Source: a bacterium
GTDB taxonomy: Bacteria > Patescibacteriota > Microgenomatia > Daviesbacterales > UBA10151
Reading direction: 5' to 3'
Length of the DNA: 64,000 bases
NCBI GenBank assembly: GCA_021786105.1
Contig: JAJYNW010000015.1
Location: 12,685 to 76,684, forward strand
Position numbers and translations under genes: made by a program. Of this stretch, positions 5,954 to 37,282 are shown piece after piece; the first letter of the stretch is position 1; each line of letters opens with the position of its first letter. The notes beneath the pieces were generated by a model, which did not search any database, was not told the DNA's origin, and saw only the letters and a list, made by a program, of their open reading frames with translations.

Positions 5954-7285
5954 ATGGATAATTTAAGGCTTTGGCACAAATTTTTAGAATCTGTTAAATC
6001 TGAGGTCGGTCCGGCCAACTATAAAGCCTGGTTTTTAAAAACCTCCCTAAAAAGCTTTACGGAAGAAAAAGTTATTCTCTCTACTCCCAATGCTTTTATT
6101 AAAGAAACTTTAAATCAAAAATATCTATCGATTATTGAAGCGAATTTTGAAAAACTGATTGGCAAAAGAGTATCGATTGAATTTATTATCAAAGAAACTG
6201 AAGCTACAATAGAGGAGGAGCCAGCGGAAGAAGACTTTTTCCAACCAGTCCAAGCCCCGGTCTCTGTTTTAAACCCCAAGTATACCTTATCCAACTATGT
6301 CGTCGGCCCCTCTAATAATGTAGCTTACGCCGCCGCCCAGGCCATTGTCCAAAACCCCGGTACCTCTTACAACCCGCTATTTATTTATGGCGGCACTGGA
6401 GTAGGTAAGACTCACTTAATGCTTGGCATCGGCAACGGAATTTTAATCAAAAAACCCCACGCCAAAATTATCTATGCTCCTTCAGAAAAATTTATGAATG
6501 ATTATGTAGCAGCTATCCAGACTAATAAAATGAGGGATTTGCGAAACAAATACCGCTCCCCGGATGTATTGCTGGTAGATGATATTCAATTTTTCTCCGG
6601 CCGGGAAGGTACCCAGGAAGAATTTTTCCACACCTTTAATGAATTGATCGGTAAAAACTGCCAAATTGTTTTGACCTCGGATAAATCACCTCACGAAATT
6701 GCCAAACTGGAAGATCGGCTTAAATCCCGTTTTGCCGGCGGGTTAATGATCGATATTCAAACCCCTGACTTTGATACCAGGGTAGCCATTCTGCGCTCAA
6801 AGTGTTTGGAGCATAAAGTCAACCTGCCGGAAGAAACTTTGAAAATATTGGCTGCATCTTTTGAAACCAACATCAGGGAACTGGAAGGACAATTAGTTGG
6901 CATCCTACAGCTTCTTCAGGCTCAAAACCTGCCTCCCACTACTGAAAATATCAGCCGGCATTTACAAACTAAAGCTCCTACCCAAAACGGTTTTAAGGTT
7001 GAACCCAAAAAAGTTTTGGAAACCGTCTGTCAGTATTTTAACCTTAACCAAAAAGAGCTAATCGGATCAAGGCGGCAAAAGGAATTGGTTCTACCGAGAC
7101 ATATCACTATGTTTATCTTAAGTGAACACTTAAATTTAACTGTGGAAAAAATCGGACAAGTCTTAGGCGGTCGGGACCATACTACAGTTATGCACGGACG
7201 GGACAAAATCAAGAAAATGGTGAATCAGGATAGGGAAGTACAACGGATGTTAATTGAGATTAAACAAAAGTTGATGGCCGCCTAA
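5954..7285 (+). CDS. dnaA: Chromosomal replication initiator DnaA
   Basis: Walker A GGTGVGKTHL, AAA+ domain and C-terminal DnaA-box binding domain (VMHGRDKI). Confidence 0.95.
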   Translation: MDNLRLWHKFLESVKSEVGPANYKAWFLKTSLKSFTEEKVILSTPNAFIKETLNQKYLSIIEANFEKLIGKRVSIEFIIKETEATIEEEPAEEDFFQPVQAPVSVLNPKYTLSNYVVGPSNNVAYAAAQAIVQNPGTSYNPLFIYGGTGVGKTHLMLGIGNGILIKKPHAKIIYAPSEKFMNDYVAAIQTNKMRDLRNKYRSPDVLLVDDIQFFSGREGTQEEFFHTFNELIGKNCQIVLTSDKSPHEIAKLEDRLKSRFAGGLMIDIQTPDFDTRVAILRSKCLEHKVNLPEETLKILAASFETNIRELEGQLVGILQLLQAQNLPPTTENISRHLQTKAPTQNGFKVEPKKVLETVCQYFNLNQKELIGSRRQKELVLPRHITMFILSEHLNLTVEKIGQVLGGRDHTTVMHGRDKIKKMVNQDREVQRMLIEIKQKLMAA

Positions 7286-7470
7286 AGTTATCCACCAGGT
7301 TTTACCACTTTTCCACAATCTATCCACTGCTAATAAACAAGCCGTAAACACGAAAATTTACCAAAAAGCGAAGCTAGTTTTCGACTTACCAACATATCCA
7401 CCAACTATACTAATACTACTAATGTTTAATAAATTATGTAGTATAATCGAACATACCTGTGGATAACTTC
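7286..7470. promoter_or_regulatory. Candidate oriC: DnaA-box cluster plus AT-rich unwinding stretch
   Basis: TTATCCACC 7288-7296, TTTTCCACA 7309-7317, CTATCCACT 7320-7328, ATATCCACC 7394-7402, TGTGGATAA 7458-7466; AT-rich 7400-7450. Confidence 0.5.
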
Positions 7471-7914
7471 AACTGGGCGCTGATTACAGCCTTATTCTTA
7501 CTTTTAATAATAGCTTATTTAATCGGAAGACTTCATAACAGAAAGTCAGCAGATATACCCACCGACTTAATTGATCTGTATAAAGGAGTGCAGGATTTAC
7601 CAGCCCGAGTTTTACAAACCATTCAGGGGTCAATTAATCCCCAAAAGGGTAAGATGGCTGAGCTGCTAACTTATGCAGAATTACGTTATGATTATGACCG
7701 AATTGTGCCGTTGGGTTGGCCAATTGATTTTATTGGTATTAAAAATAATGAACGGATTGACTTTATCGAGGTTAAGTCCGGTCAATTTCATGTCTTGACA
7801 GAAGAGGAAAAACACATTAAAAACCTTATAGCTGCCGGCCGGGTTAATTTTAGGTTAATCAAAGTGACTGAAGAAGAAGTTCAAAGGTTCGTTTCTGCTC
7901 GGGAAAGGAAATAA
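7459..7914 (+). CDS. Membrane-anchored Hjc-like PD-(D/E)xK nuclease (Holliday junction resolvase family)
   Basis: N-terminal TM helix; AELLTYAEL...PIDFIGIKNNERIDFIEVKSG matches the E...D...E-x-K pattern of archaeal Hjc. Confidence 0.45.
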   Translation: MDNFNWALITALFLLLIIAYLIGRLHNRKSADIPTDLIDLYKGVQDLPARVLQTIQGSINPQKGKMAELLTYAELRYDYDRIVPLGWPIDFIGIKNNERIDFIEVKSGQFHVLTEEEKHIKNLIAAGRVNFRLIKVTEEEVQRFVSARERK

Positions 7915-7989: not shown

Positions 7990-9090
7990 ATGAAATTTAC
8001 TGTATTACAACAAGACTTACTACCTTCTCTGCAGGCAGCAGCCAGATCAGTAGGTGTCAGGTCCACCCTGCCGGTTTTAGATAACATCTTACTCTCGGTT
8101 GAAAGCAAAAAGTTAAAGATCGCTGCAACCAATTTAGAAGTGGGGGTGATTAAATATATTAACGTGGAAGAGGAAAGTCCCGGGGAAATTACTGTTCCGG
8201 CCAAAACTTTAGTAGAGTTGGTGTCCGGATTAGGACCAGATAAGCTGAGTATAGTAGCAGAGGGTGAAGTGTTAACGGTTGAGTCCGGCAAACTAAAAGC
8301 TTCCATTAATGGTATTTCGGCTGGTGAATTTCCGGTTATTCCTTTATCTTCCGGCTCCGGTGTTGATTTTCCCAAAGCAGCCTTTTTAACCTCTTCCCAG
8401 ATTTTATTTGCCTCAGCAGTTGATGAGGGTCGGCCGGTTCTAACCGGGATTTTCACGGAAGTTAACGACGGCAAGCTAGACTTTGTGGCTACTGATGGTT
8501 TTAGGTTGGCTCACCGCCGGTTGGAAGTACCTAAAGATCAAGCTCAGTTTAGAAGCTTGATTCCCCGGCGGACCTTTGAAGAGGTGTTGCGATTGATGTC
8601 AGAAGAAGATGTAGATCAGGTTAATATTGCCACTTCCCAAAATCAAAACCAGATTGTCTTTACTTTAGGTAATACCATTGTCTCGTCTCGCTTGATTGAG
8701 GGACAATTCCCGGCCTGGGGTAAGATTATCCCGCAAAAAATTGTAGCCAGAGCCATGGTGGAGAAGGATGAACTGTTAAAAGCGATTAAACTGGCCGCTA
8801 TCTTTGCCAAAAATGAAGCTAATATTGTGGTTCTGACTACCAAAAAAGGTCTCTTGAAATTAGAATCTCATACCAAAGAAGTTGGCAGCCAGGAAAATGA
8901 GATTGAAGGCGAGATTGAGGGTGAGGAGCTAAAGATTGCTTTTAATACCAAATTTCTACTCGATGCTGTGTCTAACTCTCCTGCCACCAAAGTGATGATG
9001 GAATTTTCCGGCCCTTTGTCTGCAGCTATTATTAAACCGGTTGGAGTTGAGGGGTTGGAATATATTGTGATGCCGGTTAGACTGAGTTAA
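7990..9090 (+). CDS. dnaN: DNA polymerase III beta sliding clamp
   Basis: 366 aa, three-domain clamp, immediately after dnaA. Confidence 0.9.
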   Translation: MKFTVLQQDLLPSLQAAARSVGVRSTLPVLDNILLSVESKKLKIAATNLEVGVIKYINVEEESPGEITVPAKTLVELVSGLGPDKLSIVAEGEVLTVESGKLKASINGISAGEFPVIPLSSGSGVDFPKAAFLTSSQILFASAVDEGRPVLTGIFTEVNDGKLDFVATDGFRLAHRRLEVPKDQAQFRSLIPRRTFEEVLRLMSEEDVDQVNIATSQNQNQIVFTLGNTIVSSRLIEGQFPAWGKIIPQKIVARAMVEKDELLKAIKLAAIFAKNEANIVVLTTKKGLLKLESHTKEVGSQENEIEGEIEGEELKIAFNTKFLLDAVSNSPATKVMMEFSGPLSAAIIKPVGVEGLEYIVMPVRLS

Positions 9091-9171: not shown

Positions 9172-9675
9172 CTAAACACCCGTATACTTAATCGTCCTGA
9201 AATGGAAGATTTTCTCTTCTCCCCATCTGCCTACTCCGTCAAATTTGGTATCTGGGCCAATAAATAAGGTAAAGGTGGTGCCCAGCGGGTAGGGTTTGGC
9301 TGGAATAATCCTGGCGGTTTTTCGGTCCCCGGAAAGCTCGACTTTGTAACCTATCTCCGGTTCCATCCGGCTCTTAAATTCCCCCACATTTTCCAGTGAT
9401 CGGTTAAAGGTAATTTCGACAACATCGGTAGCTCCCACGATATTATCTTCCAAAGGATCAGGTTTGGTGGAAATAATCTGCGGTTTGTCGTTTTCAGAAA
9501 CCTGAATAGGTTTTTTATCCGAGGAGCTTGTAGTGGGTTTACTGGAAATTCCTTTCAGAAAGATTATTACCAGTATAATCCCTATAATCACTATCCCAGT
9601 AATAATTTTTTGTTTTGAAGTTTTCAGCATATTCTTATTTATAAATAGTATCAATTTCCATATATTGTTTATCAA
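9172..9675 (-). CDS. Hypothetical secreted/membrane protein with Ig-like beta domain
   Basis: N-terminal TM, Ser/Thr linker, beta-rich C-terminus; last gene of the VirB4 operon. Confidence 0.35.
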   Translation of the reverse strand: MINNIWKLILFINKNMLKTSKQKIITGIVIIGIILVIIFLKGISSKPTTSSSDKKPIQVSENDKPQIISTKPDPLEDNIVGATDVVEITFNRSLENVGEFKSRMEPEIGYKVELSGDRKTARIIPAKPYPLGTTFTLFIGPDTKFDGVGRWGEEKIFHFRTIKYTGV

Positions 9676-10123
9676 TATTTTGCTCTGCCAAAAATTGGTT
9701 AAACTCTTGTTGTCCTTGATCCGGGTTATCCTTATTTAGCTCTAATGTAAACAAATTGTTCTTTATATTATAAGTTAAAGTAAAGTTTGTCCCTTTGTAA
9801 GGGAGCTTTAAGAGTAATTGACTAATTCTTTGCCTTTTTGCCAAATAAACATCTTGATTAGCCTGGTCTTGTCGGTATTTTTGTACTAGGGCCGGATCAG
9901 TATTTGGCCCGACTCCATTAGATGCCCCCTCAGGCATGATTGTTGGATGAGGCGTAAATGGAATATTTGGTTTTGAGCTTGGAGACGGAGCGGTTAAGAC
10001 GGGAGGTGGAGCAGGAGGGAGTCTTTTCGTATTTGAGAGAATAAAAAGGGTTGCGGCTAGGGTAAAAATTAGGGCTATAAGGATAAAAATAGTTATTTTT
10101 TTGCCGATACCCAGAAAGTTCAT
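9635..10123 (-). CDS. Hypothetical membrane protein, Pro-rich linker
   Basis: N-terminal TM, PPAPPPVLTAPSPSS linker; operonic with the hydrolase. Confidence 0.35.
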   Translation of the reverse strand: MNFLGIGKKITIFILIALIFTLAATLFILSNTKRLPPAPPPVLTAPSPSSKPNIPFTPHPTIMPEGASNGVGPNTDPALVQKYRQDQANQDVYLAKRQRISQLLLKLPYKGTNFTLTYNIKNNLFTLELNKDNPDQGQQEFNQFLAEQNIDKQYMEIDTIYK

Positions 10124-10124
10124 T

Positions 10125-12545
10125 TTAATTACCTTTCCTTTTTATAGCTGCTGCAAAAAACCATGGGTGCGATTTATTATACTCTACACTATCAGGAATT
10201 AAGCTAATTAGTTTATTGCTAATCCATTGATTGGAATCATATTGGGAAGTATGTTCTGGTCGGCAATTTACAGGGTCCTCAACATGGACAAGGTTTTGAT
10301 TGATGTTAACATCGTCAATGGCAAAGATATGATCAACAACGCCTTGCTTAAGAGATCCGGGTCCGCAACCGCCGGGGTTCGGGCAGGGAAATTGATGAGA
10401 AGAGGCCACAATTAAATAGCCATTGTCTAAATATTCTTTTGCTTGGGTTAAATTAAGACTGCCGTCAGCATTTAATGCCAGATATTGGTAAGTGAAATTA
10501 TCGTTAAACCAGGTACTATTGCTAAAGAACAAACTCATGGTACTGCCGTAATTGCCGCAAGACCGGGCACCGGTATCTCTAAACATTTGGTCTATTTCTA
10601 CCGGGGTTTTAACCAGACCAAGGCTGGAAACAACAATAGCCGTTGAGCTTGGGCCACAGCCGTAATAATTAATACTGCAAGCATACTGCCAGGCCGGGTC
10701 GTCTTCACAGTAAAATTTGATATTTGGTTTTCCTCCGGGTAGAGGATTAGAGGAGGATTGACAGCTGTTGTAGCTTTTCCACAGGTCATCGCCATAATCG
10801 TAGGGGCCGCTGACGCAAGGATTATAATTCGGATCCTGCTTCTTTTTAGCAGTAATTGCCTCAGGTGTATCATATTTAGTACAGTTTGAAGGATCAGTGA
10901 GTCTTGCCCCGCTATAGTACATCGAAGCGATATCTCGGACAGTATTTTCGTTCCAGTCACCCGGCAGTTTATCAGTTTTAATTTTTAAAGCGGCCGCAGT
11001 GATTGAGTCGCGGATGCTATAGATTCTAAAGACATTTGCGGGAGCCATCGAGTTTTGCGGGTCAACAGTGTTTTTAACAGAGGTCTTATTAAATAAAGTT
11101 TTCAGGTCAGAAGAATAGCTGTTAAAGATATTGGTAAATGTCCCGGGCATAAATTGCATAATTCCAATAGCTCCTTCTTCACTGCTTTTTGCTTCATAAT
11201 CATTAGTTAAATAGTCAGCGGTTGAGCTAAAAGCGCTGGGAGATTCGACTCTCATGATTCCAGCCAAAATTGCTGCAGGAACGCCAACTTTATCGGATAT
11301 ATCAGTGAACAACCCAGCCATGGCTGGGTTGTTTAATTTCATTCCAGCATTAGCTCCATCTCCTCCCCTGTAAAAAGTACAAGAGGTGATATCTCCACCT
11401 CCTGGTGAGGGAGCTATTGGTATAACTCCGGTTGGGTTATTGCCGCCGATTATGGTTAATCCTCCTACCAGCATCATAAAACCCAGTATGCCAAACAAAA
11501 ACAGCAGCCACTTTTTGCTTTTGACGTTTTTACCAAATGAGGATACTGTCTGTCTGCCGCCTCTGCCGAATCGGTTAAATTTCCCAAAGATGCTTCTGCT
11601 GCCTCCGCCAAATCCGCCCGGATTGGCAATAGTGGTCAGGTTGCTGACTAGTCCGGTGCCCATCCGTCCTAAAAATGGGTTAGCGCTTTCCAGTCCGGTT
11701 TTGGCTGCTCCAAATATTCCCCGGCCGATTCTGCCTAAATTTTTCTTGGCAAATATCTGCGTATTTGATCCAAAAGTTTTAAGGAAACTGGGGGTTTTGA
11801 TGGTGTGTTCTCCAAAAACTCTGCCATCGCTTCTGGCTACGGCTATCTTTGATGGAGGTGTTTTTGTCTCAATAATTGATCCGTTTTCTCGGGCCAGGAT
11901 CAATTTTGGTGTTTCCGGGCCCGGACCTTTGGGAAGATTGGGTTGGCTTAGGGGGTGCTCCGTAACTGTCCCGGCTTTATTTTCAGTAAACAAAGTTGAG
12001 CCGGGTTTTTCGGCAATTTTCCCTTCGCTGGTGGCCAGTGCTATTTTGGGGGTTTGGGGTTGAGGGGTGGGTTGGTTAACAAACACCACACGGCCTGGTC
12101 TGGGAGAAATGACTGGACCGGACGGTAAACCCATACCCGGCATGCCGCCGGCAGTAGCACCGGGCGTGGTTTGGGGGGCGTTGGCTGGAGTTTGTTCCGG
12201 CGTAATTTCATATTTGTCTGCTTGTTCGACGGCCTCACCATCAATAACAAATCTACCTTCCAGCGCCTGATTTAATTCAGCTCCTTCGTTGGCCACAAAC
12301 TTACCTAAAATGCTGTTTTTGACATTTTTATAATCTTTTAAATGCTCAATTAGTGCTTCGTCTTTGAGTCCTTTTAGGGTCGGGTCTTTTGCGCGCAGCA
12401 AATTAAAACACTCTGCCCGATCCACAGTAAACCGCTGCCCTTTAATTGTGACGGTTCCTTTAGGGGGGATATTTTCCGCATGAAAGTGAGCTTTAGTCAG
12501 GACAAAGATAAAGACTTTTAGTTTGTCAAAATCTGAATATGCCAT
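10125..12545 (-). CDS. Membrane-anchored bifunctional cell-wall hydrolase: lytic transglycosylase (SLT) + papain-like (C39/CHAP-like) peptidase; VirB1/PrgK-like
   Basis: SLT motifs MRVESPS and GIMQFMPGTF; downstream Cys (YYGCGPSSTAIV) and His (VVDHIFAIDDV) dyad; single TM near residue 340; immediately downstream of VirB4. Confidence 0.65.
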   Translation of the reverse strand: MAYSDFDKLKVFIFVLTKAHFHAENIPPKGTVTIKGQRFTVDRAECFNLLRAKDPTLKGLKDEALIEHLKDYKNVKNSILGKFVANEGAELNQALEGRFVIDGEAVEQADKYEITPEQTPANAPQTTPGATAGGMPGMGLPSGPVISPRPGRVVFVNQPTPQPQTPKIALATSEGKIAEKPGSTLFTENKAGTVTEHPLSQPNLPKGPGPETPKLILARENGSIIETKTPPSKIAVARSDGRVFGEHTIKTPSFLKTFGSNTQIFAKKNLGRIGRGIFGAAKTGLESANPFLGRMGTGLVSNLTTIANPGGFGGGSRSIFGKFNRFGRGGRQTVSSFGKNVKSKKWLLFLFGILGFMMLVGGLTIIGGNNPTGVIPIAPSPGGGDITSCTFYRGGDGANAGMKLNNPAMAGLFTDISDKVGVPAAILAGIMRVESPSAFSSTADYLTNDYEAKSSEEGAIGIMQFMPGTFTNIFNSYSSDLKTLFNKTSVKNTVDPQNSMAPANVFRIYSIRDSITAAALKIKTDKLPGDWNENTVRDIASMYYSGARLTDPSNCTKYDTPEAITAKKKQDPNYNPCVSGPYDYGDDLWKSYNSCQSSSNPLPGGKPNIKFYCEDDPAWQYACSINYYGCGPSSTAIVVSSLGLVKTPVEIDQMFRDTGARSCGNYGSTMSLFFSNSTWFNDNFTYQYLALNADGSLNLTQAKEYLDNGYLIVASSHQFPCPNPGGCGPGSLKQGVVDHIFAIDDVNINQNLVHVEDPVNCRPEHTSQYDSNQWISNKLISLIPDSVEYNKSHPWFFAAAIKRKGN

Positions 12546-12548
12546 AAA

Positions 12549-14312
12549 TTATTTTCCGTTTTGTTTTGCCAAAATTTCCTCCGGGTTGGTAGTAATTAGC
12601 TGATGTTCCTGCGGGGAGGCCACCACCCGCATGGCCACATGAGTGTTGCCGGCAAAAAATATACCCTCGCCGATCCCCTCTGATAACAGCAGTCTTTGCT
12701 CCCCTTCTGACAGGTTGAAAACATGAGCCAGCAATTCGATGGAGGAAGGGGCTTGTTTTAAAAGGATTTGAATGGATGAATTAGAGATAATTTCTTTGCC
12801 TCTTTCAGTGGCCAGGAAATCTTCAATGTCTTGAGTGATGGTGGTGAGTCCTAAATAGTATTTGCGGGCCCGCTTGGCCATATCCACCAAAAAGTCCGCT
12901 GAATCCTGGTTGCGCATCAAATACCAGGCTTCATCCACAATCAGAATTCTTCGTTTCAATTTGCCACGGATTTTGGTCCAAATATAATCTAAGATCATGT
13001 GGATGGCCAGGGGCCTGAGTTGATCCGGTAGGTCGCGGACAGAAAAGACCGTAAAGGAGTTGGACAGGTCAACATTCGATTGCGAGGAGAAGATGCCGGC
13101 TAACGATCCTTTGATAAATCTTTCCAGTCGGGCGGCCAGTTCGGCTGCGGCTGGTTCTTCCATACCGAGTAGAACTTTATATAAATCTTCCATTAAGGGT
13201 GGCACTCTATTCTGAGTTTTTGGATCATCGGTAATACCCTTGAGCTGGTAAGTTTGTTTGAGGCTGCGGTCTAAAATGGCCGCTTCTTGGGCATTTAAGT
13301 TGCCTAAAACAATTTTCAAAAATGTTGTTAAAGACAAAATTTTCCGGCCTAGTTCATTTTCGCCTTCACTCAGCTCCCCTGACATATCAAAAGGGTTAAT
13401 CTTGACCGGGCTGGCAGCGGAAAAATTGATGTATTCTCCGCCTACGGCTTGAGATAACGGGAGGTATTCCTGTTCGGGATCAATGACAATAATTTCTGCC
13501 CCAAACATTAATGATCTTAAGGCTTCCAGTTTTACCAAATAAGATTTACCGGCGCCGGCTTTGGCAAATATCACCGAATTGGCATTTTCTAAAGAGAAGC
13601 GGTCGAATAAAATCAGCGAGCCGTTGTGCTCATTAATACCATACATGATTCCTTCGTTAGCTGTTAGTTCTGATGAGGCAAATGGGAAAGTGGTAGCCAG
13701 CGAGGTGGTATCCATATTATGAGTAAGATTTAACAGATCAGTTCCTTGGGGTAAGGTCGACTTAAACCCGTCCTCCATTTGTAAAGTGGTTTGCCGGGCG
13801 GTGATAGATAATGAAGCTAGGGTGGACTCTACCAGTTTGGAGGTGTTTTGCAGTTCTTCCAAAGATTGGGCCGGAACAGTGACATAAAGGGCAAACTGGA
13901 AGAACCGCTCTACTCCCCTAACCAGCTGGTCTTGTAAAGTCCGGGCATCTTCTAGGGCTACCTCCACCGCCGGATCAACCGGCCGGCCGCGCTCCAAATC
14001 TGTTTGGATGGTGGCTTCCATTTCCGCCACTTTGCGTTTTAGTTCATCCAAAACCCCTTGTGATTTGGAAGGGTAGATAAACATGGAGATTAGCAGAGAA
14101 TGATCAAAAGAAATGAGCGGTTCCAGCCAGTTGGGTTCAACAAATCTGGGGTAATCGGATACGAAGTAAGTTCGGAAGAAGCGGTGATCCAGCCGCAAGT
14201 TGCTAAAATCCACCTCAATTTCTGCCGGAGCCAAAACATCTTCTAAGGTTAGTTGAGGAATAGTTGGTTCGTCTTTGATTTTTGGCTTGTTTGACAGACT
14301 TGGTAGTTTCAT
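12549..14312 (-). CDS. VirB4/TrbE/CagE-like type IV secretion ATPase, C-terminal ATPase part
   Basis: Walker A FAKAGAGKSYL, Walker B RRILIVDEAWYLM, FSVRDL region; 4-nt ATGA overlap with the upstream N-domain ORF. Confidence 0.7.
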   Translation of the reverse strand: MKLPSLSNKPKIKDEPTIPQLTLEDVLAPAEIEVDFSNLRLDHRFFRTYFVSDYPRFVEPNWLEPLISFDHSLLISMFIYPSKSQGVLDELKRKVAEMEATIQTDLERGRPVDPAVEVALEDARTLQDQLVRGVERFFQFALYVTVPAQSLEELQNTSKLVESTLASLSITARQTTLQMEDGFKSTLPQGTDLLNLTHNMDTTSLATTFPFASSELTANEGIMYGINEHNGSLILFDRFSLENANSVIFAKAGAGKSYLVKLEALRSLMFGAEIIVIDPEQEYLPLSQAVGGEYINFSAASPVKINPFDMSGELSEGENELGRKILSLTTFLKIVLGNLNAQEAAILDRSLKQTYQLKGITDDPKTQNRVPPLMEDLYKVLLGMEEPAAAELAARLERFIKGSLAGIFSSQSNVDLSNSFTVFSVRDLPDQLRPLAIHMILDYIWTKIRGKLKRRILIVDEAWYLMRNQDSADFLVDMAKRARKYYLGLTTITQDIEDFLATERGKEIISNSSIQILLKQAPSSIELLAHVFNLSEGEQRLLLSEGIGEGIFFAGNTHVAMRVVASPQEHQLITTNPEEILAKQNGK

Positions 14313-15124
14313 TCAGTTAATTCCTCTACTACAAACGGATGAGTTCTGGTGCTTTGGGTTATAGTTGGCGTGCCGGGTGAGACTGGTGCGCCCGGTGGAT
14401 AGGTCGGAGTATCAGCGATCTGGTTGGTGGACTGGCTTATTGGTGAACTGGTTGGCTGACTTACTGAAATTGGTTGCGGATTTTTCAGTCTAACCGCTAA
14501 TTGTTCTGGACTGACCGGTTGGGTAATTGATTGTTCTAAAGCTTCTCCATTATATACTTCCTTCGGAAGACTGTAATTCTCCGAATTATAAATATCATAG
14601 AAGATCTCAATCAGTTCCCGTCTGGATAACTGGTCAGCGTTTAGCCCTACCCGGGCCAATTGTCTGATGATTTGGTCTCTGCGGGGCCAAAGCACGGTTT
14701 TAATTTTCTGTTCCAGTCTTTCTTTTGAGGCGGTAATGCCCAATTCTAAGGCAAAAAGCGGGATGACAATATAAAATTTTTTATCCAGCACTTCGTTTTC
14801 CTTAATGGTGCTTTGGATGAATTGTTTATACTGGGTGATCATTTGCGATAGTAAGGGATTAGTTTGTGCTTTTTTGGCTTTATCCAAAAGTTCTAAGTAT
14901 GAAGTAATATGAAGTCTTTCCGAATGTATCATGATTTGAATGCTAAAAGACAAGGAATTGAGCATTTGGGCAAAAGAGGAAATAATCGCTACCTGTTCTC
15001 TCTCTGAAAGCAGGCCAAAGTTGACAGCTGAAACTTGTAGGACCAGCGCCCCTCCGCCGTCTTTTAGCAGCAGGATATCGTCCTGGATGTCAGCGATAGA
15101 TAAATGAGATTGTGTCGTATACAT
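14309..15124 (-). CDS. VirB4-like N-terminal domain encoded as a separate ORF
   Basis: IADIQDDILLLKDGGGALVLQVSAVNFGLLSEREQ resembles the conserved N-terminus of Gram-positive VirB4 homologues; low-complexity C-terminal linker. Confidence 0.5.
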   Translation of the reverse strand: MYTTQSHLSIADIQDDILLLKDGGGALVLQVSAVNFGLLSEREQVAIISSFAQMLNSLSFSIQIMIHSERLHITSYLELLDKAKKAQTNPLLSQMITQYKQFIQSTIKENEVLDKKFYIVIPLFALELGITASKERLEQKIKTVLWPRRDQIIRQLARVGLNADQLSRRELIEIFYDIYNSENYSLPKEVYNGEALEQSITQPVSPEQLAVRLKNPQPISVSQPTSSPISQSTNQIADTPTYPPGAPVSPGTPTITQSTRTHPFVVEELTE

Positions 15125-15133
15125 CTTTGAGCT

Positions 15134-16183
15134 TTACTCCTTTGCTGCTATTAACAAAGGAGGTAATACTTGACCAGTTAATTCCATCTGTAAGACATCA
15201 AAAGTCAGGCCCTCCTTTTCCAGCTCTAAAGTATAAGTCCCATTCGGTAAGGGGGTGGAGCCGGTAAATTGGCCCAGCTTATTGGTTTTTAAGGCTCTGA
15301 CCGGCAGGCCCTCCTTATCGTAGATGACTGCTACTACCCCTTCCAGGTAATCGTTCTCTTTGTTTTTTACAATCCCATTGATCACATTAGGAAAGGTGGT
15401 GAGGGCGATTTGGGTTTGTTTGGGTTTTGCCGGAATGACCACTTTAACTTTCTCTTTTAGAATGACTGGGGGAGGCGGAGAGGCAGATTCTGGTTGCGGT
15501 TCTGCGGTAACCGACTGGATTTCCTGTTTGATGGTTGAGGCCTGACTAACCAAGCTTTGCAGGTCATCCAGGATTTTATTGACTTGTTGACCGTAATCTA
15601 CCGGTACAGGGGTAGGCTTTTGGGCGGCTGTTTTAATTTGGGATAAAGTCCGTTCAGTTTGGATAATTTTCATTTGTAATTGCTGGGCCTGACGCGCCAG
15701 ATTAACTGTTTTGCTTAGCTCTTCTTGGGTAGGAAGTTCAGCTGGCGTACCGGCGGGTCGAGGGGTCTGCGCTTCGGCAATTTGGTTAGGTGCTGGTTTA
15801 CTGGTTTGCTGATTGATTGGATCCTGATTTGCGTTATTTAAGTACATCATTAGACGGTTGTTGAATGAAGGATTTTCTTTAAAACTTTTGCCGTTTTTCC
15901 GCCAAACTCTGACGGTGGGGGAATAAACAGCTTTCAAAAAAGCTGCCAGCCAATAATCCAAAGGCCGTGATCCGACCGGTAAAAAAGCAAAACTGATTCC
16001 TAAAATTGCCGAACAGATAATGATCGGCCAGGCGATTAAAGGGAAGCTGTGTGCAAAGAATATAAACATAAGGTAGGAAACAGTAGCTCCGCCCGCCAGA
16101 TAGCCAAATTGTTTGAGGGTCATATCCCCAATTAGCTTAAACTGGAAGGAGGTGACATTTTGCGGAATCGGGTGGACATCCAT
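15134..16183 (-). CDS. Membrane protein: N-terminal two-TM VirB3-like segment, coiled coil, C-terminal CarboxypepD_reg-like beta-sandwich
   Basis: Two TM helices at residues about 30-75, Q/P-rich coiled coil, C-terminus GVVAVIYDKEG...PNGTYTLELEKEGL; first gene of the VirB4 operon. Confidence 0.4.
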   Translation of the reverse strand: MDVHPIPQNVTSFQFKLIGDMTLKQFGYLAGGATVSYLMFIFFAHSFPLIAWPIIICSAILGISFAFLPVGSRPLDYWLAAFLKAVYSPTVRVWRKNGKSFKENPSFNNRLMMYLNNANQDPINQQTSKPAPNQIAEAQTPRPAGTPAELPTQEELSKTVNLARQAQQLQMKIIQTERTLSQIKTAAQKPTPVPVDYGQQVNKILDDLQSLVSQASTIKQEIQSVTAEPQPESASPPPPVILKEKVKVVIPAKPKQTQIALTTFPNVINGIVKNKENDYLEGVVAVIYDKEGLPVRALKTNKLGQFTGSTPLPNGTYTLELEKEGLTFDVLQMELTGQVLPPLLIAAKE

Positions 16184-16684: not shown

Positions 16685-17623
16685 ATGCCAGTATCAGAAC
16701 GAGAACGAACAGCTATTGCCAATATTGCAGGTTGGAGAAACACCGCCCCTGCTCAATTTGCAGAAGAATTAGCCTCTTTAAGTTTGGAAACTCATAGAAT
16801 TGCAGACCCCTATTCTTATTTGATTACAGCGAAAGGAGAATTGTTTTCACCTACAGCTAGATGTCTGATTAAAGATACCATCGATGATAAAACTAGTTTG
16901 TTAGGTAGATTAGAATACCAAGCTGTTTTAGTCACTGAGCAATGGGTAGCTAACAATAATGAGGGAGTAAGTATTTGGGTTAGCCCACCAAAAAAAGGAA
17001 TATATCCCACCTCTAAAATAATTGTTCAGGAAATAGTGCATGAAGGCGGAGTGAAGAAATTATTCAACCGGGCCATTGTTTTGGATTTTAACGAAGAACA
17101 ATGTATGAGGTTTGCTTGGAATCTGACTAGTTTTAGCCACAATAAGCCTATTTTCAGAGACTTGGATGAGATTAGAGCTATTCCTTTAGTATTGAATACT
17201 CAAAATAAATCTTGGATTGATATCTTGGAAAAATTAATTGATGTTCCGAAAGTTTGGGCAATGATTCGAAACGGAGAAGATAAGCAGTATAAAAAAGAGA
17301 CCCTCAGGCAGGCTGTAATAGTCCAAAAGCAGTTCTTTACTGATTCCAGGCTATCTTATTCAGATGAAGCAAAAATAGCCGTTATGCAAATGCTAGGGTC
17401 AAAATCCGGCAGTTGTCCGCCGCGATCTGGTACTCAGGGCAGAACAGCTTTTCAAGCTATTGCCGGTTCTGCCGTGACAGTTGGCAGTGGAGGGGGATTG
17501 GTCGAATCAGATCAATATGGGTCTTTGGAGTTTGAGTGCCCAAAGTGCAAGAAAACAAATACCAGACCAAAGGGTCAACTAATACCAAACTGCCAGCATT
17601 GCGGGCAAGATGTCCGTTGTTAG
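16685..17623 (+). CDS. Hypothetical protein with C-terminal zinc ribbon
   Basis: 312 aa; CPKCKK...CQHCGQ C4 motif at the C-terminus; no other recognisable domain. Confidence 0.4.
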   Translation: MPVSERERTAIANIAGWRNTAPAQFAEELASLSLETHRIADPYSYLITAKGELFSPTARCLIKDTIDDKTSLLGRLEYQAVLVTEQWVANNNEGVSIWVSPPKKGIYPTSKIIVQEIVHEGGVKKLFNRAIVLDFNEEQCMRFAWNLTSFSHNKPIFRDLDEIRAIPLVLNTQNKSWIDILEKLIDVPKVWAMIRNGEDKQYKKETLRQAVIVQKQFFTDSRLSYSDEAKIAVMQMLGSKSGSCPPRSGTQGRTAFQAIAGSAVTVGSGGGLVESDQYGSLEFECPKCKKTNTRPKGQLIPNCQHCGQDVRC

Positions 17624-19542: not shown

Positions 19543-22500
19543 ATGGCACAAATTGAAAGTTATAACCCTGAGCGAAGTCGAAGGGAAAGAATTATGGCAG
19601 AAAGTAGTGCAATTCCAGAAGGAGCCCGTGATGTCCCCAAAAACCAATTAGTAATAGTGGGCCCAGGTGGTGAATACCGGGGACAATATAGACCTCCAGA
19701 AACGCCAAAGCCTCCTGAAGACCGTTTACTTCCAAGAAGGGTGGAAGAAGAAATAGCAGAAAGAGGAGGTAGTGAGTTTGAAAGAGCCAGATTGCTTTAC
19801 GACCATTACATGGGATTACCTCTCCCTATTGAGCAAGGGCTAAGAGATGAACTTCAAAGACGCCAAGCGCAAAGAAGAGCAGAGCTTGAGCGATTAGAAC
19901 AGGAAGCCGAAAAACACCCGGCTCAACCAGTGAAATTAATTACCAGAGAAATGCTGAGATCTTATAAAAGAATTAAGGAAACCAGGATCCGCGAATTGCA
20001 GGGTGGAGGAAGAGAGGATGCCATAGAACGGGAAAGAAGTAGGGGAGAATTGCAGGAAAGAATATTTGAAGATTATACTGAACTTGCTTCAGAGAGGAGT
20101 ATTCTTGCCGGCTTAGGACGCTACTTATGGGATGGTTTTCATACGGCAGTTGTTAATAATGAAAAAGGTATAACAGGTTTAACTCTTAAAAATCCTTTTG
20201 CAGAACGATTTTTTGAAATGATTAAACGGATGAGGCAAAGGGACAGGATGAGTACGAAAGAAAGCAGATATTTTCAGGTTGAATCATGGTATGGTGGATC
20301 TACAATCGTGATGTTTACCTGGCCTGAAAGCGCCCGGGATATGATCATTACTACCATGGATTGGATGAAAGATCGTATAGCAGATATAGGTCAGCGCGAT
20401 CCGGGAACAGCAAGTAAAGAATTTGAGGAAATGAGGTCACTTGGCCCTAATCTTTTGAAAAATACCCGTATCCGCATTAACGATGAACCAGTTTTGGTGG
20501 CAGAGCATGGGAAGATTCAGGAAACAAACCCGGATTACTTAAGAGCAAGAGCCCTTAGCGAAGGTCCGCCCGATGTCTTTGCCACTGAGATAATTACAAA
20601 AAAGGGCAATACTGAATTTGGGCCACAAGCTAAAGAAAGATTTGCTGCCAAATTTATTGAGAATTTCAATGCCATGTTTTTAGAAAATAGATCTGCAGCT
20701 TATTTGATGCACAGATTAAGAACATACAAAGATGGTACTTATTGGACCGGTCATGATTGGCATGCCGATAAAGTGAAAGAAGGGGATATCAAAGATTACC
20801 GGGCAAAAATACAGGAAGAGCTGATGGGTGAAGCTGCTACTCTTGATTTCTTTACTGAAACTATTTTTGTCAATAACCAAGACCTTTTTCAGGATGTGAT
20901 TCAAGGAAAAGATATTGGGGAAACAGCGGAAAATGTAGAAGATGTGAGGTTAGCTTATAAAGGCTTTTTTGAACTCAGAGAAAGGAACGGTTTGCAGTAT
21001 AGTATTAATGATCCTCTAGAAAGATTACTGTTAGATCCCGGAGATGTAATAAGACAAAGAATTAAAGCTACAGGAGATGCTGAGGCTTTAAAAAGGCATG
21101 ATGTGCGTGTAGCAGTTTTCAGAAGAACAAAAGAATTATTAGACAGAAGAGAAGGCTTTGACTTTATTAGCATGGCAGAAATATATAAGTTGGAGAAGCG
21201 TATGAGACGGCCGCTTTCAGATGAAGAACTGGCCGATTTAGCAGAAGTACATAAAGATGTTATCCGTGCACAGTTGCAGCAAACTCTGCAATCTCAGGGA
21301 CAAGATCCTGATCAGAATAAAGATTGGATTGAACAAAGCATTATAGAAGTTAAAGAAAGCAGAAAACAGGAGGCTATTAGGAGTAGGATACGCGCTCGGG
21401 TAGAGGAGATTAGCCGGGGAAAAAGCTATTTTGCAGAAACTTGTGCAGAAACATTAATACGGTTTGATCAAGCTAAGAAGGCTGGTGATTTAGCAAAATG
21501 TGATCAAATAGCCTGGGGATGGGTTAAAGATTATAACAGCAAGCTTATTCGATCTCATTTACCAAAATGGTACCCGAGCGGTTGGGATAAAGTCAGACTA
21601 AAAATAGACAGAGCGGCTAAAGTGATTGACCGTTCTTTAACAGAGGAAGAGAGGGAAGCAATGTATGAAACAGCATATCTGCCCGAGGGAAATGATGAGG
21701 AGTCAATAGCAAGAAGACTTGACCTTATTGCAGGCCGCGGAGAAGAAGCGAGATTTGGTTTTGAGATGGCCAGAGTCTTTTCACCGTTCTTGATGGAGTC
21801 TTCTTTGTTAGGAGGCATGAGAATCAGAATGGTGATGAAAAAAGGACCACATGCTGGAGAATATATTGGCAGGCTGGATGATGATGAAACCAGCGTGTTG
21901 TGTGGTCTTATTAAAGGAAGGGTAAATCCTCAAACGCGTGAAGTTGAGATTGAGAAAGATGTCAATGGTGAAGCTATTATTATAGATCCTGAGAGAAAAA
22001 GTATCCGTATTTCGGACATACTTGAGGCTCGGTTGGCCAAAGCTATTGCCGACGAGGAACACGAAATAGAACCTTTCAGGTTAGCTAAACATCAGGCATT
22101 GACAGCCATGTACAGGGCTGAACTATCTGGCAATCAGGCAGAAATGGCTGCGGCACACCAAGCTTTGGATAAAGCAGCCAAAGATTTAAGAGAAAAACTA
22201 TGCGACTGTCAATTTATAGTCACCCATGCTTTTAAAGCAAAAGGTTTAGTTAATGGTAGATGGCCAACATGGCCACAGGCATCAGCTTTGGATAATTCTG
22301 GAATTAAGTTGTTTGGAGAAATCTTAGCAGAATACGGAGTAGAGGTAGCTCCAGGCCTGCCTTTTGCAGACTATAAGAGCGAAATTTATGAGTATTTGGA
22401 AAGAGAAAGAAGAGGCCAGTTTGCAGAGATGGATCGGGCAAATCAAGAGTTTATGGAAGATAAATATCCTATTTATGAACGTGACGAGTGGACCGGAGAG

Positions 22501-23847
22501 ATTATTATGGATCCGGTGTTTGAGAATGGCGAGCCCAAGAAGGATCAACAAGGGAAAACGGTTATGGCACCAAGACCAGCTATATCCATATTTACCATGT
22601 CTGATCCCTGGGGCGAGCCAGGGCCGATGTCTGACCGGCCGCGGGTGGTAAATAAAGGAGACTGGGCAGAGAATACCATGGTCACTGAAGCAGAGTATAA
22701 TATCTCTACTAGCGGCGGAGTGAAATTCCCTGAATTTATCCGCTATGCCAGCATTCGCTTTTTACCTTTAGGAATATCGGGGCTGGGTTCCCCAGGCCTT
22801 TGGGATTTGAATAATTTCATTAAAGGAAGGAATGAAGTTGAATTCCATAAGCAAAAATTGTTTGATCCAACAGACATGCCCAAAAATGCCAGAGCGCAGG
22901 CTGCAGCCTATAAAGCCCGGATAGCTTTAACAGGCGGCAGTTTAGGTGAAGGCCAATTCACCCCAGGATTTTTAAATGAACCATTTAATGGTGCATTTAC
23001 TATTGCCGATTGGCTCCGTCAAATAGCCACCAATCAAGCTGGTTTTGATGCTTACAAGATGGAGAAAACCCAACTGTATGTAAAGAAAATGGAAGCTATG
23101 AGGAATGGAGAGACTCTCAAGGAGGGGGAACTAGAGGAATTAAGGCAACTAACTTACGAAGATTATTTTGTTCTCATTAAACATAAGACTATTGCAGATG
23201 AGTTTTATCAAACCACCTATAAGACTTTTGGCAATTTCGTTACTTGGCTTAAAGCTGAAAAGGAAGTTGAGCAAAACCGGATTGGTAATGCTCCAAGGAA
23301 CTATGCTTATGATAATACAAAACGCTGGTATGCCTTTAGAAAACTGATGCGCGAATCCATGCACAAAGGCGAGCGGGGTTTTATTCAAAGGTTAGGTTAT
23401 TCTCCTGAGATAGCTAGCGAGCTTTCCTTAAGAATGTTAGAAACCGGTATGCAGGATGCAGATTACTTGATTTTAAGGGATTATGAGAGGGAAAGATTGG
23501 CTCAGGAAGGATCATTAATACTTTCTAAAGTCTTAATTGATGCAGAAAAACAGAAAGGACTTTCATTATTAGATGAGACAACATGGGAAGATCAACGTGC
23601 CGAGGTAAAAAAAGCTTTGGAAACAGTCAGAAGAAGAGGCTTGCTGGAGTTTATGAGAGAAGAAGGATTTTCATGGTATTCAAAAATTGAAGGGGTAGAA
23701 AAAGGGCGATATAAACGCGAAGATAAATTTTATTTAGGGGAAAGAGTACCTGAAGCAGTTAGGAAAAACGGTAATATGATTACAAATTATGAACGCCGGG
23801 TAATGAGATCTGCAGAGTATCAATATCAACCACCTGTCACACCGTAG
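19543..23847 (+). CDS. Giant orphan protein (1434 aa), highly charged, no TM or signal peptide
   Basis: Uninterrupted 4.3-kb ORF with strong promoter and RBS; E/R/K/D-rich; no Walker or other catalytic motifs recognised. Confidence 0.6.
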   Translation: MAQIESYNPERSRRERIMAESSAIPEGARDVPKNQLVIVGPGGEYRGQYRPPETPKPPEDRLLPRRVEEEIAERGGSEFERARLLYDHYMGLPLPIEQGLRDELQRRQAQRRAELERLEQEAEKHPAQPVKLITREMLRSYKRIKETRIRELQGGGREDAIERERSRGELQERIFEDYTELASERSILAGLGRYLWDGFHTAVVNNEKGITGLTLKNPFAERFFEMIKRMRQRDRMSTKESRYFQVESWYGGSTIVMFTWPESARDMIITTMDWMKDRIADIGQRDPGTASKEFEEMRSLGPNLLKNTRIRINDEPVLVAEHGKIQETNPDYLRARALSEGPPDVFATEIITKKGNTEFGPQAKERFAAKFIENFNAMFLENRSAAYLMHRLRTYKDGTYWTGHDWHADKVKEGDIKDYRAKIQEELMGEAATLDFFTETIFVNNQDLFQDVIQGKDIGETAENVEDVRLAYKGFFELRERNGLQYSINDPLERLLLDPGDVIRQRIKATGDAEALKRHDVRVAVFRRTKELLDRREGFDFISMAEIYKLEKRMRRPLSDEELADLAEVHKDVIRAQLQQTLQSQGQDPDQNKDWIEQSIIEVKESRKQEAIRSRIRARVEEISRGKSYFAETCAETLIRFDQAKKAGDLAKCDQIAWGWVKDYNSKLIRSHLPKWYPSGWDKVRLKIDRAAKVIDRSLTEEEREAMYETAYLPEGNDEESIARRLDLIAGRGEEARFGFEMARVFSPFLMESSLLGGMRIRMVMKKGPHAGEYIGRLDDDETSVLCGLIKGRVNPQTREVEIEKDVNGEAIIIDPERKSIRISDILEARLAKAIADEEHEIEPFRLAKHQALTAMYRAELSGNQAEMAAAHQALDKAAKDLREKLCDCQFIVTHAFKAKGLVNGRWPTWPQASALDNSGIKLFGEILAEYGVEVAPGLPFADYKSEIYEYLERERRGQFAEMDRANQEFMEDKYPIYERDEWTGEIIMDPVFENGEPKKDQQGKTVMAPRPAISIFTMSDPWGEPGPMSDRPRVVNKGDWAENTMVTEAEYNISTSGGVKFPEFIRYASIRFLPLGISGLGSPGLWDLNNFIKGRNEVEFHKQKLFDPTDMPKNARAQAAAYKARIALTGGSLGEGQFTPGFLNEPFNGAFTIADWLRQIATNQAGFDAYKMEKTQLYVKKMEAMRNGETLKEGELEELRQLTYEDYFVLIKHKTIADEFYQTTYKTFGNFVTWLKAEKEVEQNRIGNAPRNYAYDNTKRWYAFRKLMRESMHKGERGFIQRLGYSPEIASELSLRMLETGMQDADYLILRDYERERLAQEGSLILSKVLIDAEKQKGLSLLDETTWEDQRAEVKKALETVRRRGLLEFMREEGFSWYSKIEGVEKGRYKREDKFYLGERVPEAVRKNGNMITNYERRVMRSAEYQYQPPVTP

Positions 23848-25706: not shown

Positions 25707-25753
25707 AAAGATATACTAACAGTAAAACAAACCACCATACTTTGCAACTCTTT

Positions 25754-26194
25754 TCAGGGCTTAAATGGACCGCAGAACCAGTTGGTGGAGTCGCCGCATA
25801 AAGCTTTCATGTTAAAAACTGTGACAGGTTGATTTGTGAAGCCGGCAATCAGCTGTAAAATAATCCACGCTACAGCCATAAAAAGTACTCCTAAAATGGC
25901 CCATGACAGAGTGTAGTGGGCAGCCTGGAGGGCTTTAGGTTCCCCGCCGGAGGTCAGGTATTTAAATCCGGCAACAAGCAGTACCATGAGCATGGCAATA
26001 AACCCCAGGCCAACTACTACAGACAGGACATTGCCAACTGTTCCTTCGATTTCATTTAATCCGGCCGGGCAGGGACCATATTTGGCAATTGAGGCAGCAT
26101 CAGAAGGGCAGGGCGAAGGAACAGGATTTGCTGCGTAGGCCGGAGAAACAAAAAAAGCCAAGATTAAAGTAAAGAGCAGCAATATCTTCATCAA
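25754..26194 (-). CDS. Pilin-like paralog 1 (signal peptide, conserved TM-SGGEPK-TM hairpin)
   Basis: SP MMKILLLFTLILAFFVSPAYA; FKYLTSGGEPKALQAAHYTLSWAILGVLF. Confidence 0.5.
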   Translation of the reverse strand: MMKILLLFTLILAFFVSPAYAANPVPSPCPSDAASIAKYGPCPAGLNEIEGTVGNVLSVVVGLGFIAMLMVLLVAGFKYLTSGGEPKALQAAHYTLSWAILGVLFMAVAWIILQLIAGFTNQPVTVFNMKALCGDSTNWFCGPFKP

Positions 26195-26257
26195 TTAATC
26201 ATTATTCACTAATGTTAAATCATTTGCAATGGCTGGAAGATCAAATGAAATTTGGTA

Positions 26258-26626
26258 TTAGCTGGGAGCTGGGATTGGCAGAGTGCCAATGTTGGGGAAG
26301 CCTAAGATTTGGGCTGCCAGTTGAGCCAAGGCAAAGGCGACAGCCAGAATGGCGATACCAACTAAAGCATTGATAATTCTGTTTCTGGCTTTGGCCACCG
26401 CTTCTTTGTCTCCACCGGACACAATCCATTCAAATGCCCCCAAAATCAGCATCACCAAAACTACTAATACTGCTATGGAAAAAGCGATCGTGATGATATT
26501 GGTAATAAAGTTGCCGATAGTTTTATAACCATAGGGAGGCGGGGAGATGGTTATATCTGTAGCCAAGGCCGGAGTAGCGGTTAACAATGAAAATGCTGCA
26601 GAACCAATAAATGCTAATTTTTTCAT
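26258..26626 (-). CDS. Pilin-like paralog 2
   Basis: Signal peptide; LGAFEWIVSGGDKEAVAKARNRIINALVGIAIL. Confidence 0.5.
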   Translation of the reverse strand: MKKLAFIGSAAFSLLTATPALATDITISPPPYGYKTIGNFITNIITIAFSIAVLVVLVMLILGAFEWIVSGGDKEAVAKARNRIINALVGIAILAVAFALAQLAAQILGFPNIGTLPIPAPS

Positions 26627-26662
26627 CTCTGGTTTAACTATAGCTATATCGCAAACGACTTG

Positions 26663-27388: not shown

Positions 27389-27527
27389 GGATCCCTAAAA
27401 ATATCTTACCATAAACTCATACAAATCTCTTATCTTTATCACATTTCTTCCATTCATTTTTCTGTTAGCATAAAGCATAGCCTATAACCTTGACAAAAAT
27501 ACTATAGAGTATTAAAATGGCGCTCAA

Positions 27528-28433: not shown

Positions 28434-28457
28434 TTTAGCAGTTGTTTTGACTCAGCT

Positions 28458-28790
28458 CTAACTTTGGAATAGCTGGAGATTGGTAATTCCGAATAAACTG
28501 GACAGTAAAAATTGCAGAATGATAAAGGCAAACATTAAAATAATAAAGCCAATGATGGCGTGAGTAATCATTTGTCTGGCTCCGGCAATTTCTTCTTTAT
28601 TCCCGCCAGATTTTAACCAATTAAAAGCTCCCCAGAGGAAATAAATTACCACTGCAGCCGCGGCAACGGAAAATATGGTAGGAACTAACTTGCTGATGAT
28701 GTCTCCAAAAGAAGAAAATGATGGGCCAAAGCCAAAACAGTCTTTAATTGATACGCCGGAGGGGTAAGGGGGAGTAGGGCAGGGGTTCAA
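28458..28790 (-). CDS. Pilin-like paralog 4
   Basis: LWGAFNWLKSGGNKEEIAGARQMITHAIIGFIIL. Confidence 0.5.
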   Translation of the reverse strand: MNPCPTPPYPSGVSIKDCFGFGPSFSSFGDIISKLVPTIFSVAAAAVVIYFLWGAFNWLKSGGNKEEIAGARQMITHAIIGFIILMFAFIILQFLLSSLFGITNLQLFQS

Positions 28791-29083: not shown

Positions 29084-29086
29084 AAT

Positions 29087-29468: not shown

Positions 29469-29472
29469 AGTT

Positions 29473-29507: not shown

Positions 29508-29524
29508 GGCTGTTTTTCTAGACT

Positions 29525-37259: not shown

Positions 37260-37282
37260 TTAAAAAATGCTATATCAAAGGG

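Follow-up and report, generated by a model that had tools for sequence, protein, structure and literature searches.

What might a type IV secretion system (T4SS) be doing beside the replication origin of a bacterium when neither a relaxase nor a coupling protein accompanies it? The question is raised by positions 9172–16183 (minus strand) of a 64,000-nucleotide stretch of contig JAJYNW010000015.1 (assembly GCA_021786105.1), hereafter called the window. Six packed open reading frames (ORFs), separated by 9, −4, 3, 1 and −41 nt, encode there, in order, a PrgI/VirB3-like protein, a TrsD-like protein, VirB4, a wall hydrolase with SLT and C39-like domains and two small bitopic proteins. The host is a member of the Patescibacteria, the best related loci coming from metagenome-assembled genomes of Candidatus Daviesbacteria with up to 91% VirB4 identity. 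The system is almost certainly a T4SS of the Patescibacteria type, already described in 2023–2025, and adds no new kind. We consider it fairly probable that it is a vertically inherited, origin-proximal machine that no longer conjugates, and that its likeliest role is that of an apparatus for contact between episymbiont and host, with protein or other non-conjugative cargo.

A large part of bacterial diversity falls to the Patescibacteria, whose members apparently live on other microbes. The T4SS is among the few machines shown to be essential for the epibiotic lifestyle, in one cultivated Saccharibacterium. The window offers a clean and complete example of this system from the Microgenomatia. 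For comparison, 441 VirB4 relatives were collected among GTDB species representatives, and locus counts given below refer to the best 80 of these. The VirB4 proteins of the 80 loci are 61–91% identical and span several candidate divisions; where annotated, the loci belong almost entirely to Daviesbacteria, Curtissbacteria, Shapirobacteria or other Microgenomates.

The operon and its two-part VirB4

The 587-residue VirB4 passed the cut-off of the conju_CD1110 family NF045971 (E 1.6e-117, 393.7 bits, cut-off 325) and matched the C-terminal domain of VirB4 from Thermoanaerobacter pseudethanolicus (PDB 4AG5, E 4.7e-49), with Pfam matches to P-loop_TraG, AAA_10 and CagE_TrbE_VirB. Walker A (GAGKS) and Walker B (ILIVDE) motifs can be read directly from its sequence. 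However, the first ~180 residues of a full-length VirB4 are missing from it. The 271-residue product of the preceding gene aligned with positions 21–200 of the 201 in the TrsD/TraD family NF041427 (E 2.8e-7), scoring 30.5 bits against a cut-off of 200. With this score under the cut-off, homology to TrsD is based on hhalign and on the way in which the VirB4 models are tiled. A profile of 30 TrsD-like homologues matched the 216-residue ORF that immediately precedes traE on a plasmid of Bacillus cereus (hhalign 98.1%, E 1.2e-13). In the VirB4_plasma model NF045975 (894 positions) the TrsD-like protein covers positions 132–290 and VirB4 293–893; the corresponding stretches are 25–199 and 183–734 in NF045971 (752 positions), and 51–193 and 272–776 in the TraC-F model. 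The 271-residue protein is thus predicted to be VirB4's N-terminal subdomain, made as a polypeptide of its own. A profile search of the TrsD-like family against PDB sequences returned spurious matches alone (together with the search for the VirB6 candidate described below, prenyltransferases at E ~0.006 and designed repeat proteins).

Positions of the gene products of the T4SS in the window, with the evidence for each assignment.
Feature	Length (aa)	Position	Strand	Evidence
PrgI/VirB3-like membrane protein	349	15134–16183	−	Pfam PrgI PF12666
TrsD-like protein, Pro/Ser/Thr-rich tail	271	14309–15124	−	NCBIfam, hhalign
VirB4 ATPase, MPF_FATA/CD1110 type	587	12549–14312	−	NF045971, PDB 4AG5, Pfam
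VirB1-analogue wall hydrolase	806	10125–12545	−	Pfam SLT and Peptidase_C39_2, one transmembrane helix
Small bitopic protein	162	9635–10123	−	Transmembrane helix 10–28
Small bitopic protein with extracytoplasmic Ig-like Big_5 domain	167	9172–9675	−	Transmembrane helix 24–42
Polytopic membrane protein, candidate VirB6	609	23877–25706	−	Predicted fold
VirB2-like pilin paralogue	146	25754–26194	−	PF18895 E 1.6e-7; signal peptide and two-helix hairpin
VirB2-like pilin paralogue	122	26258–26626	−	PF18895 E 4.5e-9; TrbC/VirB2 PF04956 weak, E 0.002
VirB2-like pilin paralogue, Cys-rich N-terminal extension	241	26663–27388	−	PF18895 E 7.2e-9
VirB2-like pilin paralogue	110	28458–28790	−	PF18895 E 8.6e-9
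VirB2-like pilin paralogue	98	28787–29083	−	PF18895 E 4.1e-7
Large secreted protein ending in VirB2-like pilin domain	392	29525–30703	−	PF18895 E 1.5e-5

The 4-nt overlap (ATGA) of the two ORFs, which jointly tile a full-length VirB4, could also be taken as the mark of a frameshift or assembly error, in which case the operon would be a pseudogenised, non-functional relic. The comparison of loci contradicts this: trsD and virB4 are separate ORFs in all 78 of 78 loci, with differing frames and with junctions that vary, except in one outlier, between an overlap of 29 nt and a gap of 182 nt, and trsD precedes virB4 in 78 of the 80. Moreover, the B. cereus plasmid carries a free-standing TrsD homologue, TrsD is a named family in its own right, and VirB4 is well kept across loci of several candidate divisions. 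We therefore give the error reading next to no credence and regard the split as evolutionarily real. An earlier reading made from the letters alone (the sequence-only reading) had described a 'split VirB4'; two ORFs do cover VirB4, but, as far as sequence comparison tells, they form a conserved TrsD and VirB4 pair shared with Firmicutes plasmids rather than a disrupted gene.

The 349-residue product of the first gene matched PrgI PF12666 (E 2.3e-9, 38.1 bits, cut-off 27) and, weakly, CarboxypepD_reg, a carboxypeptidase-regulatory-like beta-sandwich (E 9.5e-4); its homologues are named 'PrgI family protein' at NCBI, with PF13620 in many. The AlphaFold2 (AF2) model shows transmembrane (TM) helices 23–43 and 48–67 as a hairpin, with a predicted local distance difference test score (pLDDT) above 90, followed by an antiparallel coiled-coil hairpin (helices 153–188 and 198–226) and, at lower confidence, a C-terminal beta-sandwich with strands between 267 and 335. 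Family match and model agree with the two-TM, VirB3-like protein with coiled coil and beta-sandwich that had been proposed from the sequence, and for which structure prediction had been recommended. A positively charged segment after the second TM helix suggests, by the positive-inside rule, that the long extension beyond it is cytoplasmic. A PrgI homologue stands immediately upstream of trsD-virB4 in 77 of the 80 loci, and all are long (263–615 residues, one of 1015) in comparison with the 132–142 residues found on two compared plasmids.

Downstream of virB4, the wall hydrolase exceeded the cut-offs of both SLT PF01464 (E 3.7e-5) and Peptidase_C39_2 PF13529 (E 1.9e-5), with both domains lying after a single TM helix at 348–366. 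Its N-terminal region of ~345 residues (given as window 10125–11160) has no signal peptide, is poorly conserved among homologues and contains three short repeats, PK(I/L)xLA(T/R)xEG. The membrane anchor, the SLT domain and a cysteine peptidase had all been recognised in the sequence-only reading, with the peptidase as a papain-like Cys/His enzyme; it is better described as C39-like. In the SLT domain, at least 80% of 33 Daviesbacteria homologues retain the catalytic glutamate and the A.G.MQ motif, whereas the C-terminal peptidase region is not conserved. In more distantly related Microgenomatia, virB4 is directly followed by an ORF for a large protein whose end is an M23 domain (three loci) or a CHAP domain (one locus), or in which a hydrolase domain is not recognisable. 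The position after virB4 thus appears, from these sequences, to be a slot for interchangeable wall-hydrolase modules.

The last two genes encode the small bitopic proteins that had been expected, each with one N-terminal TM helix. In the 162-residue protein the helix is followed by a Pro-rich linker and a domain of ~70 residues with an LPYxGTNFSLxY motif, which seems too small for an NTF2-like fold; homologues were detected in 7 of 80 loci, and the protein had no match in Pfam or NCBIfam. The Big_5 domain of the 167-residue protein was matched by 23 of 25 members of its family (best E 2e-9). This protein is present in 42 of the 80 loci, invariably right before dnaN, and all of these loci are Daviesbacteria by annotation or nearest to them by VirB4 identity.

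A scan of the operon for promoters and terminators was uninformative: it gave 21 promoter-like sites where 12.6 were expected, and 10 terminator-like sites where 9.4 were. A cobalamin riboswitch (RF00174, 16372–16595, plus strand, 52 bits, E 4.4e-10) lies in the 500-bp gap upstream of the operon. Past this gap, a divergent ORF of 312 residues (16685–17623) has no family match and a C-terminal CxxC...CxxC zinc ribbon; homologues occupy the same position in 17 of 80 loci.

A pilin array and a candidate VirB6

Around 8 kb to the right of the operon and on the same strand, six ORFs between 25754 and 30703 carry T4SS_pilin PF18895, a VirB2-like domain typical of candidate phyla radiation (CPR) bacteria. 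Five exceeded the cut-off and one fell just under it, the 392-residue protein scoring 25.4 bits over residues 313–372 against a cut-off of 26.6. A two-helix hairpin is present in all six and a signal peptide in most; pairwise identity among the pilin domains is 27–43%.

The array is closed by a polytopic protein of 609 residues with no family match. An AF2 model built from 33 homologues reached a mean pLDDT of 66, with values of 70–90 in the membrane core, and structure comparison recovered a VirB6-like fold; the protein is, on this model, probably a VirB6 analogue. Upstream of the operon, 46 loci have a detectable VirB6 candidate and about 20 have detectable pilin genes. The sequence-only reading had called the system 'minimal', which does not hold: with the pilin array and the VirB6-like protein of the same window added, the system has VirB1, VirB2, VirB3, VirB4 and probably VirB6-type parts.

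Two genes of other kinds interrupt the pilin array. One, at 29112–29468 (minus strand), resembles the 23S-rRNA intervening protein (IVP)/bAvd genes, and such IVP-like genes adjoin prgI in 12 of the 80 loci; the other (27528–28433, plus strand) encodes a Pro/Thr-rich protein of 301 residues with two TM helices. Between the two T4SS clusters, a gene at 19543–23847 (plus strand) encodes a highly charged soluble protein of 1434 residues, which has no family match and is detectable in 8 of 80 loci. The region from the virB6 candidate to prgI is variable and here also contains a HicB-like gene and an AAA_14/DUF4143 gene.

Setting beside the replication origin

In the window dnaA (5954–7285) adjoins dnaN (7990–9090), which ends 82 nt from the operon. 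The cumulative GC skew has its minimum at ~6–7 kb and perfect DnaA boxes are found at 5912 and 7458, which together place oriC beside the operon. This neighbourhood recurs: dnaN-dnaA lies downstream of the operon, on the opposite strand and at a median of 3.3 kb, in each of the 60 loci (of the 80) whose DNA reaches dnaN, usually with rnpA and yidC beyond. The order prgI-trsD-virB4-(hydrolase)-dnaN-dnaA is the same in these 60 Microgenomatia loci, as the synteny comparison proposed with the sequence-only reading now makes clear, and the position beside dnaA-dnaN which that reading had noted is therefore a fixed one.

The inheritance of the system was assessed by comparing protein identities. 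VirB4 identity correlates with that of DnaA (rho 0.87) and DnaN (rho 0.93), and exceeds both in 59 of 59 loci. That VirB4 both tracks and exceeds the two replication proteins argues for vertical inheritance rather than for an integrative and conjugative element (ICE), and VirB4 appears, from these identities, to be under stronger constraint than DnaA or DnaN.

Searches for the DNA-processing parts of a conjugation system gave the same picture. No match to families of type IV coupling proteins (T4CP), VirB11 or relaxases was obtained in a Pfam scan of nearly all window ORFs longer than ~90 residues, in keeping with the absence of VirD4, relaxase and VirB11 first noted from the letters. The other ORFs of the window with a strict Walker A motif encode DnaA, the AAA_14 protein and an 87-residue HicB-like product in which the match is due to chance. 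When the coupling-protein and relaxase scan was extended from the 64-kb window to 10 kb past each edge, neither was found, nor was any further P-loop candidate; these flanks are housekeeping DNA, with genes for ribosomal protein L25, TsaD, Lon, a tRNA synthetase and others of that kind. A relaxase/VirD4 pair just outside the window, which would have made the operon part of an ordinary conjugative element, was thus not found within 10 kb of either edge.

An ordinary ICE, or the decaying remnant of one, with relaxase and coupling protein outside the window, is nevertheless suggested by two observations: outside the Patescibacteria the nearest relatives in sequence and gene order are conjugative plasmids of Firmicutes and Actinobacteria, and the window contains a large serine recombinase gene (44056–45816). 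The recombinase, however, is 28 kb away with smpB, dnaG and rpoD in between, and the operon is flanked by dnaN and by housekeeping genes, at the same site and in the same orientation in all 60 loci. Decay is likewise at odds with ORFs that are all intact and with a VirB4 split kept throughout. This reading, contradicted by the fixed synteny and by the tracking of DnaA and DnaN identity and with housekeeping DNA past both edges, is very improbable. For a chromosomal, origin-side T4SS, the lack of a relaxase and of a coupling protein points to a non-conjugative use. A chromosomal, non-conjugative T4SS of Gram-positive type had been the proposal of the sequence-only reading; fixed synteny, the missing T4CP and relaxase and a published counterpart (PMC12102498; PMC10633639) all favour it.

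Located to the right of oriC and encoded on the minus strand, both T4SS clusters (9172–16183 and 23877–30703) are read head-on to replication. For the virB4 operon the same orientation with respect to dnaN was seen in 60 of 60 loci, a feature not discussed in the 2025 survey of Patescibacteria (PMC12102498). Head-on placement beside the origin complicates a simple argument that the site was kept for high expression.

Other features of the window were recorded in passing. Between dnaA and dnaN, a gene at 7459–7914 (plus strand) encodes a 151-residue endonuclease resembling archaeal Holliday junction resolvases (PF10107); it is kept in 40 of the 80 loci, mostly at 68–90% identity. The tmRNA (35743–36163, plus strand, 117.8 bits) follows right after smpB (35226–35681), and several tRNA genes lie at 37173–40580. 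The region 44017–56526 is probably a variable or defence island: a tRNA gene overlaps the 3′ end of the serine recombinase gene, and the island further includes small unknown ORFs, a LOOT RNA (RF03000, 48908–49018, 90 bits), a type I restriction-modification system (49296–54619) and a SMODS/CD-NTase and Cap15 pair (54628–56063) resembling a cyclic-oligonucleotide-based anti-phage signalling system (CBASS). At 60357–63944 (minus strand) a sortase gene stands beside genes for two low-complexity proteins (395 and 599 residues) with C-terminal hydrophobic anchors, in both of which the canonical LPXTG motif was not found.

Probable function and relation to known systems

The VirB1, VirB2, VirB3, VirB4 and VirB6 analogues retained here match the inner-membrane, pilus-building part of characterised T4SSs, as known from the R388 structure, with T4CP and relaxase, the DNA-processing part, absent. 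In such a machine the two-TM PrgI/VirB3-like protein would anchor the VirB4 motor at the membrane, the motor itself combining the TrsD-like N-terminal subdomain with the 587-residue ATPase as separate polypeptides. The membrane-anchored SLT and cysteine-peptidase enzyme might open the peptidoglycan locally, and the VirB6-like polytopic protein could serve as the membrane platform. VirB4 would extract the VirB2-like pilins from the membrane, to be polymerised on this platform into a pilus or conduit reaching the host.

A requirement for such a system in life on a host has been demonstrated by transposon sequencing of Southlakia epibionticum, in which SEML1_0006-0019, including pilins, are essential for epibiotic growth, and in which the T4SS cluster has no recognisable coupling protein or relaxase (Wang et al., 2023; PMC10633639). 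The more specific proposal, that of a pilus or an apparatus for contact whose cargo is non-conjugative, has, in our estimate, about an even chance of being correct.

What is shown here is the identity and anatomy of the parts; the order of assembly outlined above, the cargo and the direction of transport are our inference. Several points weigh against the explanation as a whole. The C-terminal domains of the PrgI-like protein have low model confidence, and the model behind the VirB6 assignment is of moderate confidence; Foldseek ranked VirB6 first for it, without significance, and a profile of the VirB6 candidates gave spurious matches alone against PDB sequences and nothing in hhalign against the CD1112 VirB6 of Clostridium botulinum pCDC3875. 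No VirB8-like or VirB5-like part was found here, and the 162-residue protein has no similarity to the TcpC-like protein that occupies the equivalent slot on a plasmid. Furthermore, 5,713 VirD4 homologues have been counted in 2,918 Patescibacteria genomes, elsewhere in the genome (PMC12102498), and the requirement for epibiotic growth was shown in S. epibionticum only, not in a member of the Microgenomatia (PMC10633639).

The same apparatus might instead work mainly as an importer, bringing host DNA or other macromolecules into the episymbiont and so offsetting its missing nucleotide and lipid synthesis. DNA-importing T4SSs without T4CP or relaxase do exist, namely ComB of Helicobacter pylori and the archaeal Ced system, and ComB retains homologues of VirB2, VirB3, VirB4 and VirB6. 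Protein-exporting T4SSs without a T4CP are likewise known from Bordetella (Ptl) and Brucella (VirB) (cited in PMC12102498). All four resemble the window system as VirB4-driven machines without coupling protein or relaxase; however, ComB, Ptl and Brucella VirB (Ced apart) are diderm and possess a VirB7/9/10 core in the outer membrane, and the affinity of the window VirB4 to any of the four is generic only. It does match CedB (NF041017), but at E 1.3e-14, far weaker than its E of 1.6e-117 for the conjugative CD1110 family. Import of DNA or other macromolecules has been proposed by the authors of the Patescibacteria survey, who found the T4SS of the class ABY1 adjoining comF, recG and radA (PMC12102498); in our window no competence genes adjoin the cluster. 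In S. epibionticum, moreover, deletion of comEC abolished competence and left viability intact, as a 2025 review relates (PMC12857230), whereas the T4SS is essential, so that its essential role is not ComEC-coupled DNA uptake. We regard an importer as unlikely. A particular form of it, in which VirB4 alone drives import, the long PrgI/VirB3 extension replaces the coupling protein as substrate receptor and a VirB2 conduit draws in host macromolecules, would account for the higher conservation of VirB4 relative to DnaA, and is in our view quite improbable. A contact apparatus with non-conjugative cargo remains the reading that we prefer.

The system appears, from sequence and gene order, to derive from the MPF_FATA conjugation channel of monoderm bacteria. 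Conjugative plasmids of Firmicutes and Actinobacteria encode VirB4 proteins ~30–40% identical to that of the window. Within the pGO1/pIP501 subclass of Firmicutes MPF_FATA systems (TrsC-TrsD-TrsE...TrsG), comparison was made through two plasmids. In B. cereus p30102_3 the order runs PrgI-like (142 residues), TrsD-like (216), TraE/VirB4 (617), Lysozyme_like with NlpC/P60 (343) and a weakly TcpC-like protein (174); C. botulinum pCDC3875 has VirD4, x, VirB6, PrgI, x, an unsplit VirB4 (797), x, and SLT with NlpC/P60 (957), x standing for other genes. The plasmid cores are collinear with the window operon in their PrgI-like, TrsD-like and VirB4 proteins and in a bifunctional hydrolase that joins a glycosidase to a cysteine peptidase. 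In contrast, the plasmid systems have a VirD4-type T4CP (pCDC3875), usually a relaxase, no VirB2 pilins and a mobile replicon, whereas the window system lacks both T4CP and relaxase, occupies a fixed site on the chromosome, and has six pilin paralogues and a PrgI of about three times the length.

The closest counterpart is the T4SS of the Patescibacteria themselves. Quinonero-Coronel et al. (2025; PMC12102498) described a monophyletic Patescibacteria VirB4 clade related to MPF_FATA, with abundant TrsD homologues beside virB4, PrgI/VirB3 proteins and VirB2 pilin arrays, the latter especially in Microgenomatia and Saccharimonadia. Relaxases were near-absent and T4CP homologues mostly distant from virB4, the T4SS of Paceibacteria and Microgenomatia lay close to dnaA, dnaN and rnpA, and the authors concluded that the T4SS had been repurposed from conjugation, possibly for import. 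The window system shares with this clade a VirB4 of MPF_FATA ancestry with adjacent TrsD, PrgI/VirB3 and a divergent PF18895 pilin array, the wall hydrolase right after virB4, a cluster without relaxase or T4CP, the chromosomal site by dnaA, dnaN and rnpA and a Patescibacterium as host; there is no difference in kind. In the survey, VirB6 homologues were scarce in Microgenomatia and 22.6% of VirB3 homologues were near virB4 (PMC12102498), as against the adjacent PrgI in nearly all loci compared here; Microgenomatia, reported to be poor in VirB6, do carry a VirB6-like predicted fold beside a pilin array. To the published description our analysis makes an incremental addition, namely the structural assignment of a probable VirB6 in Microgenomatia, an apparently swappable hydrolase slot and the conserved head-on orientation.

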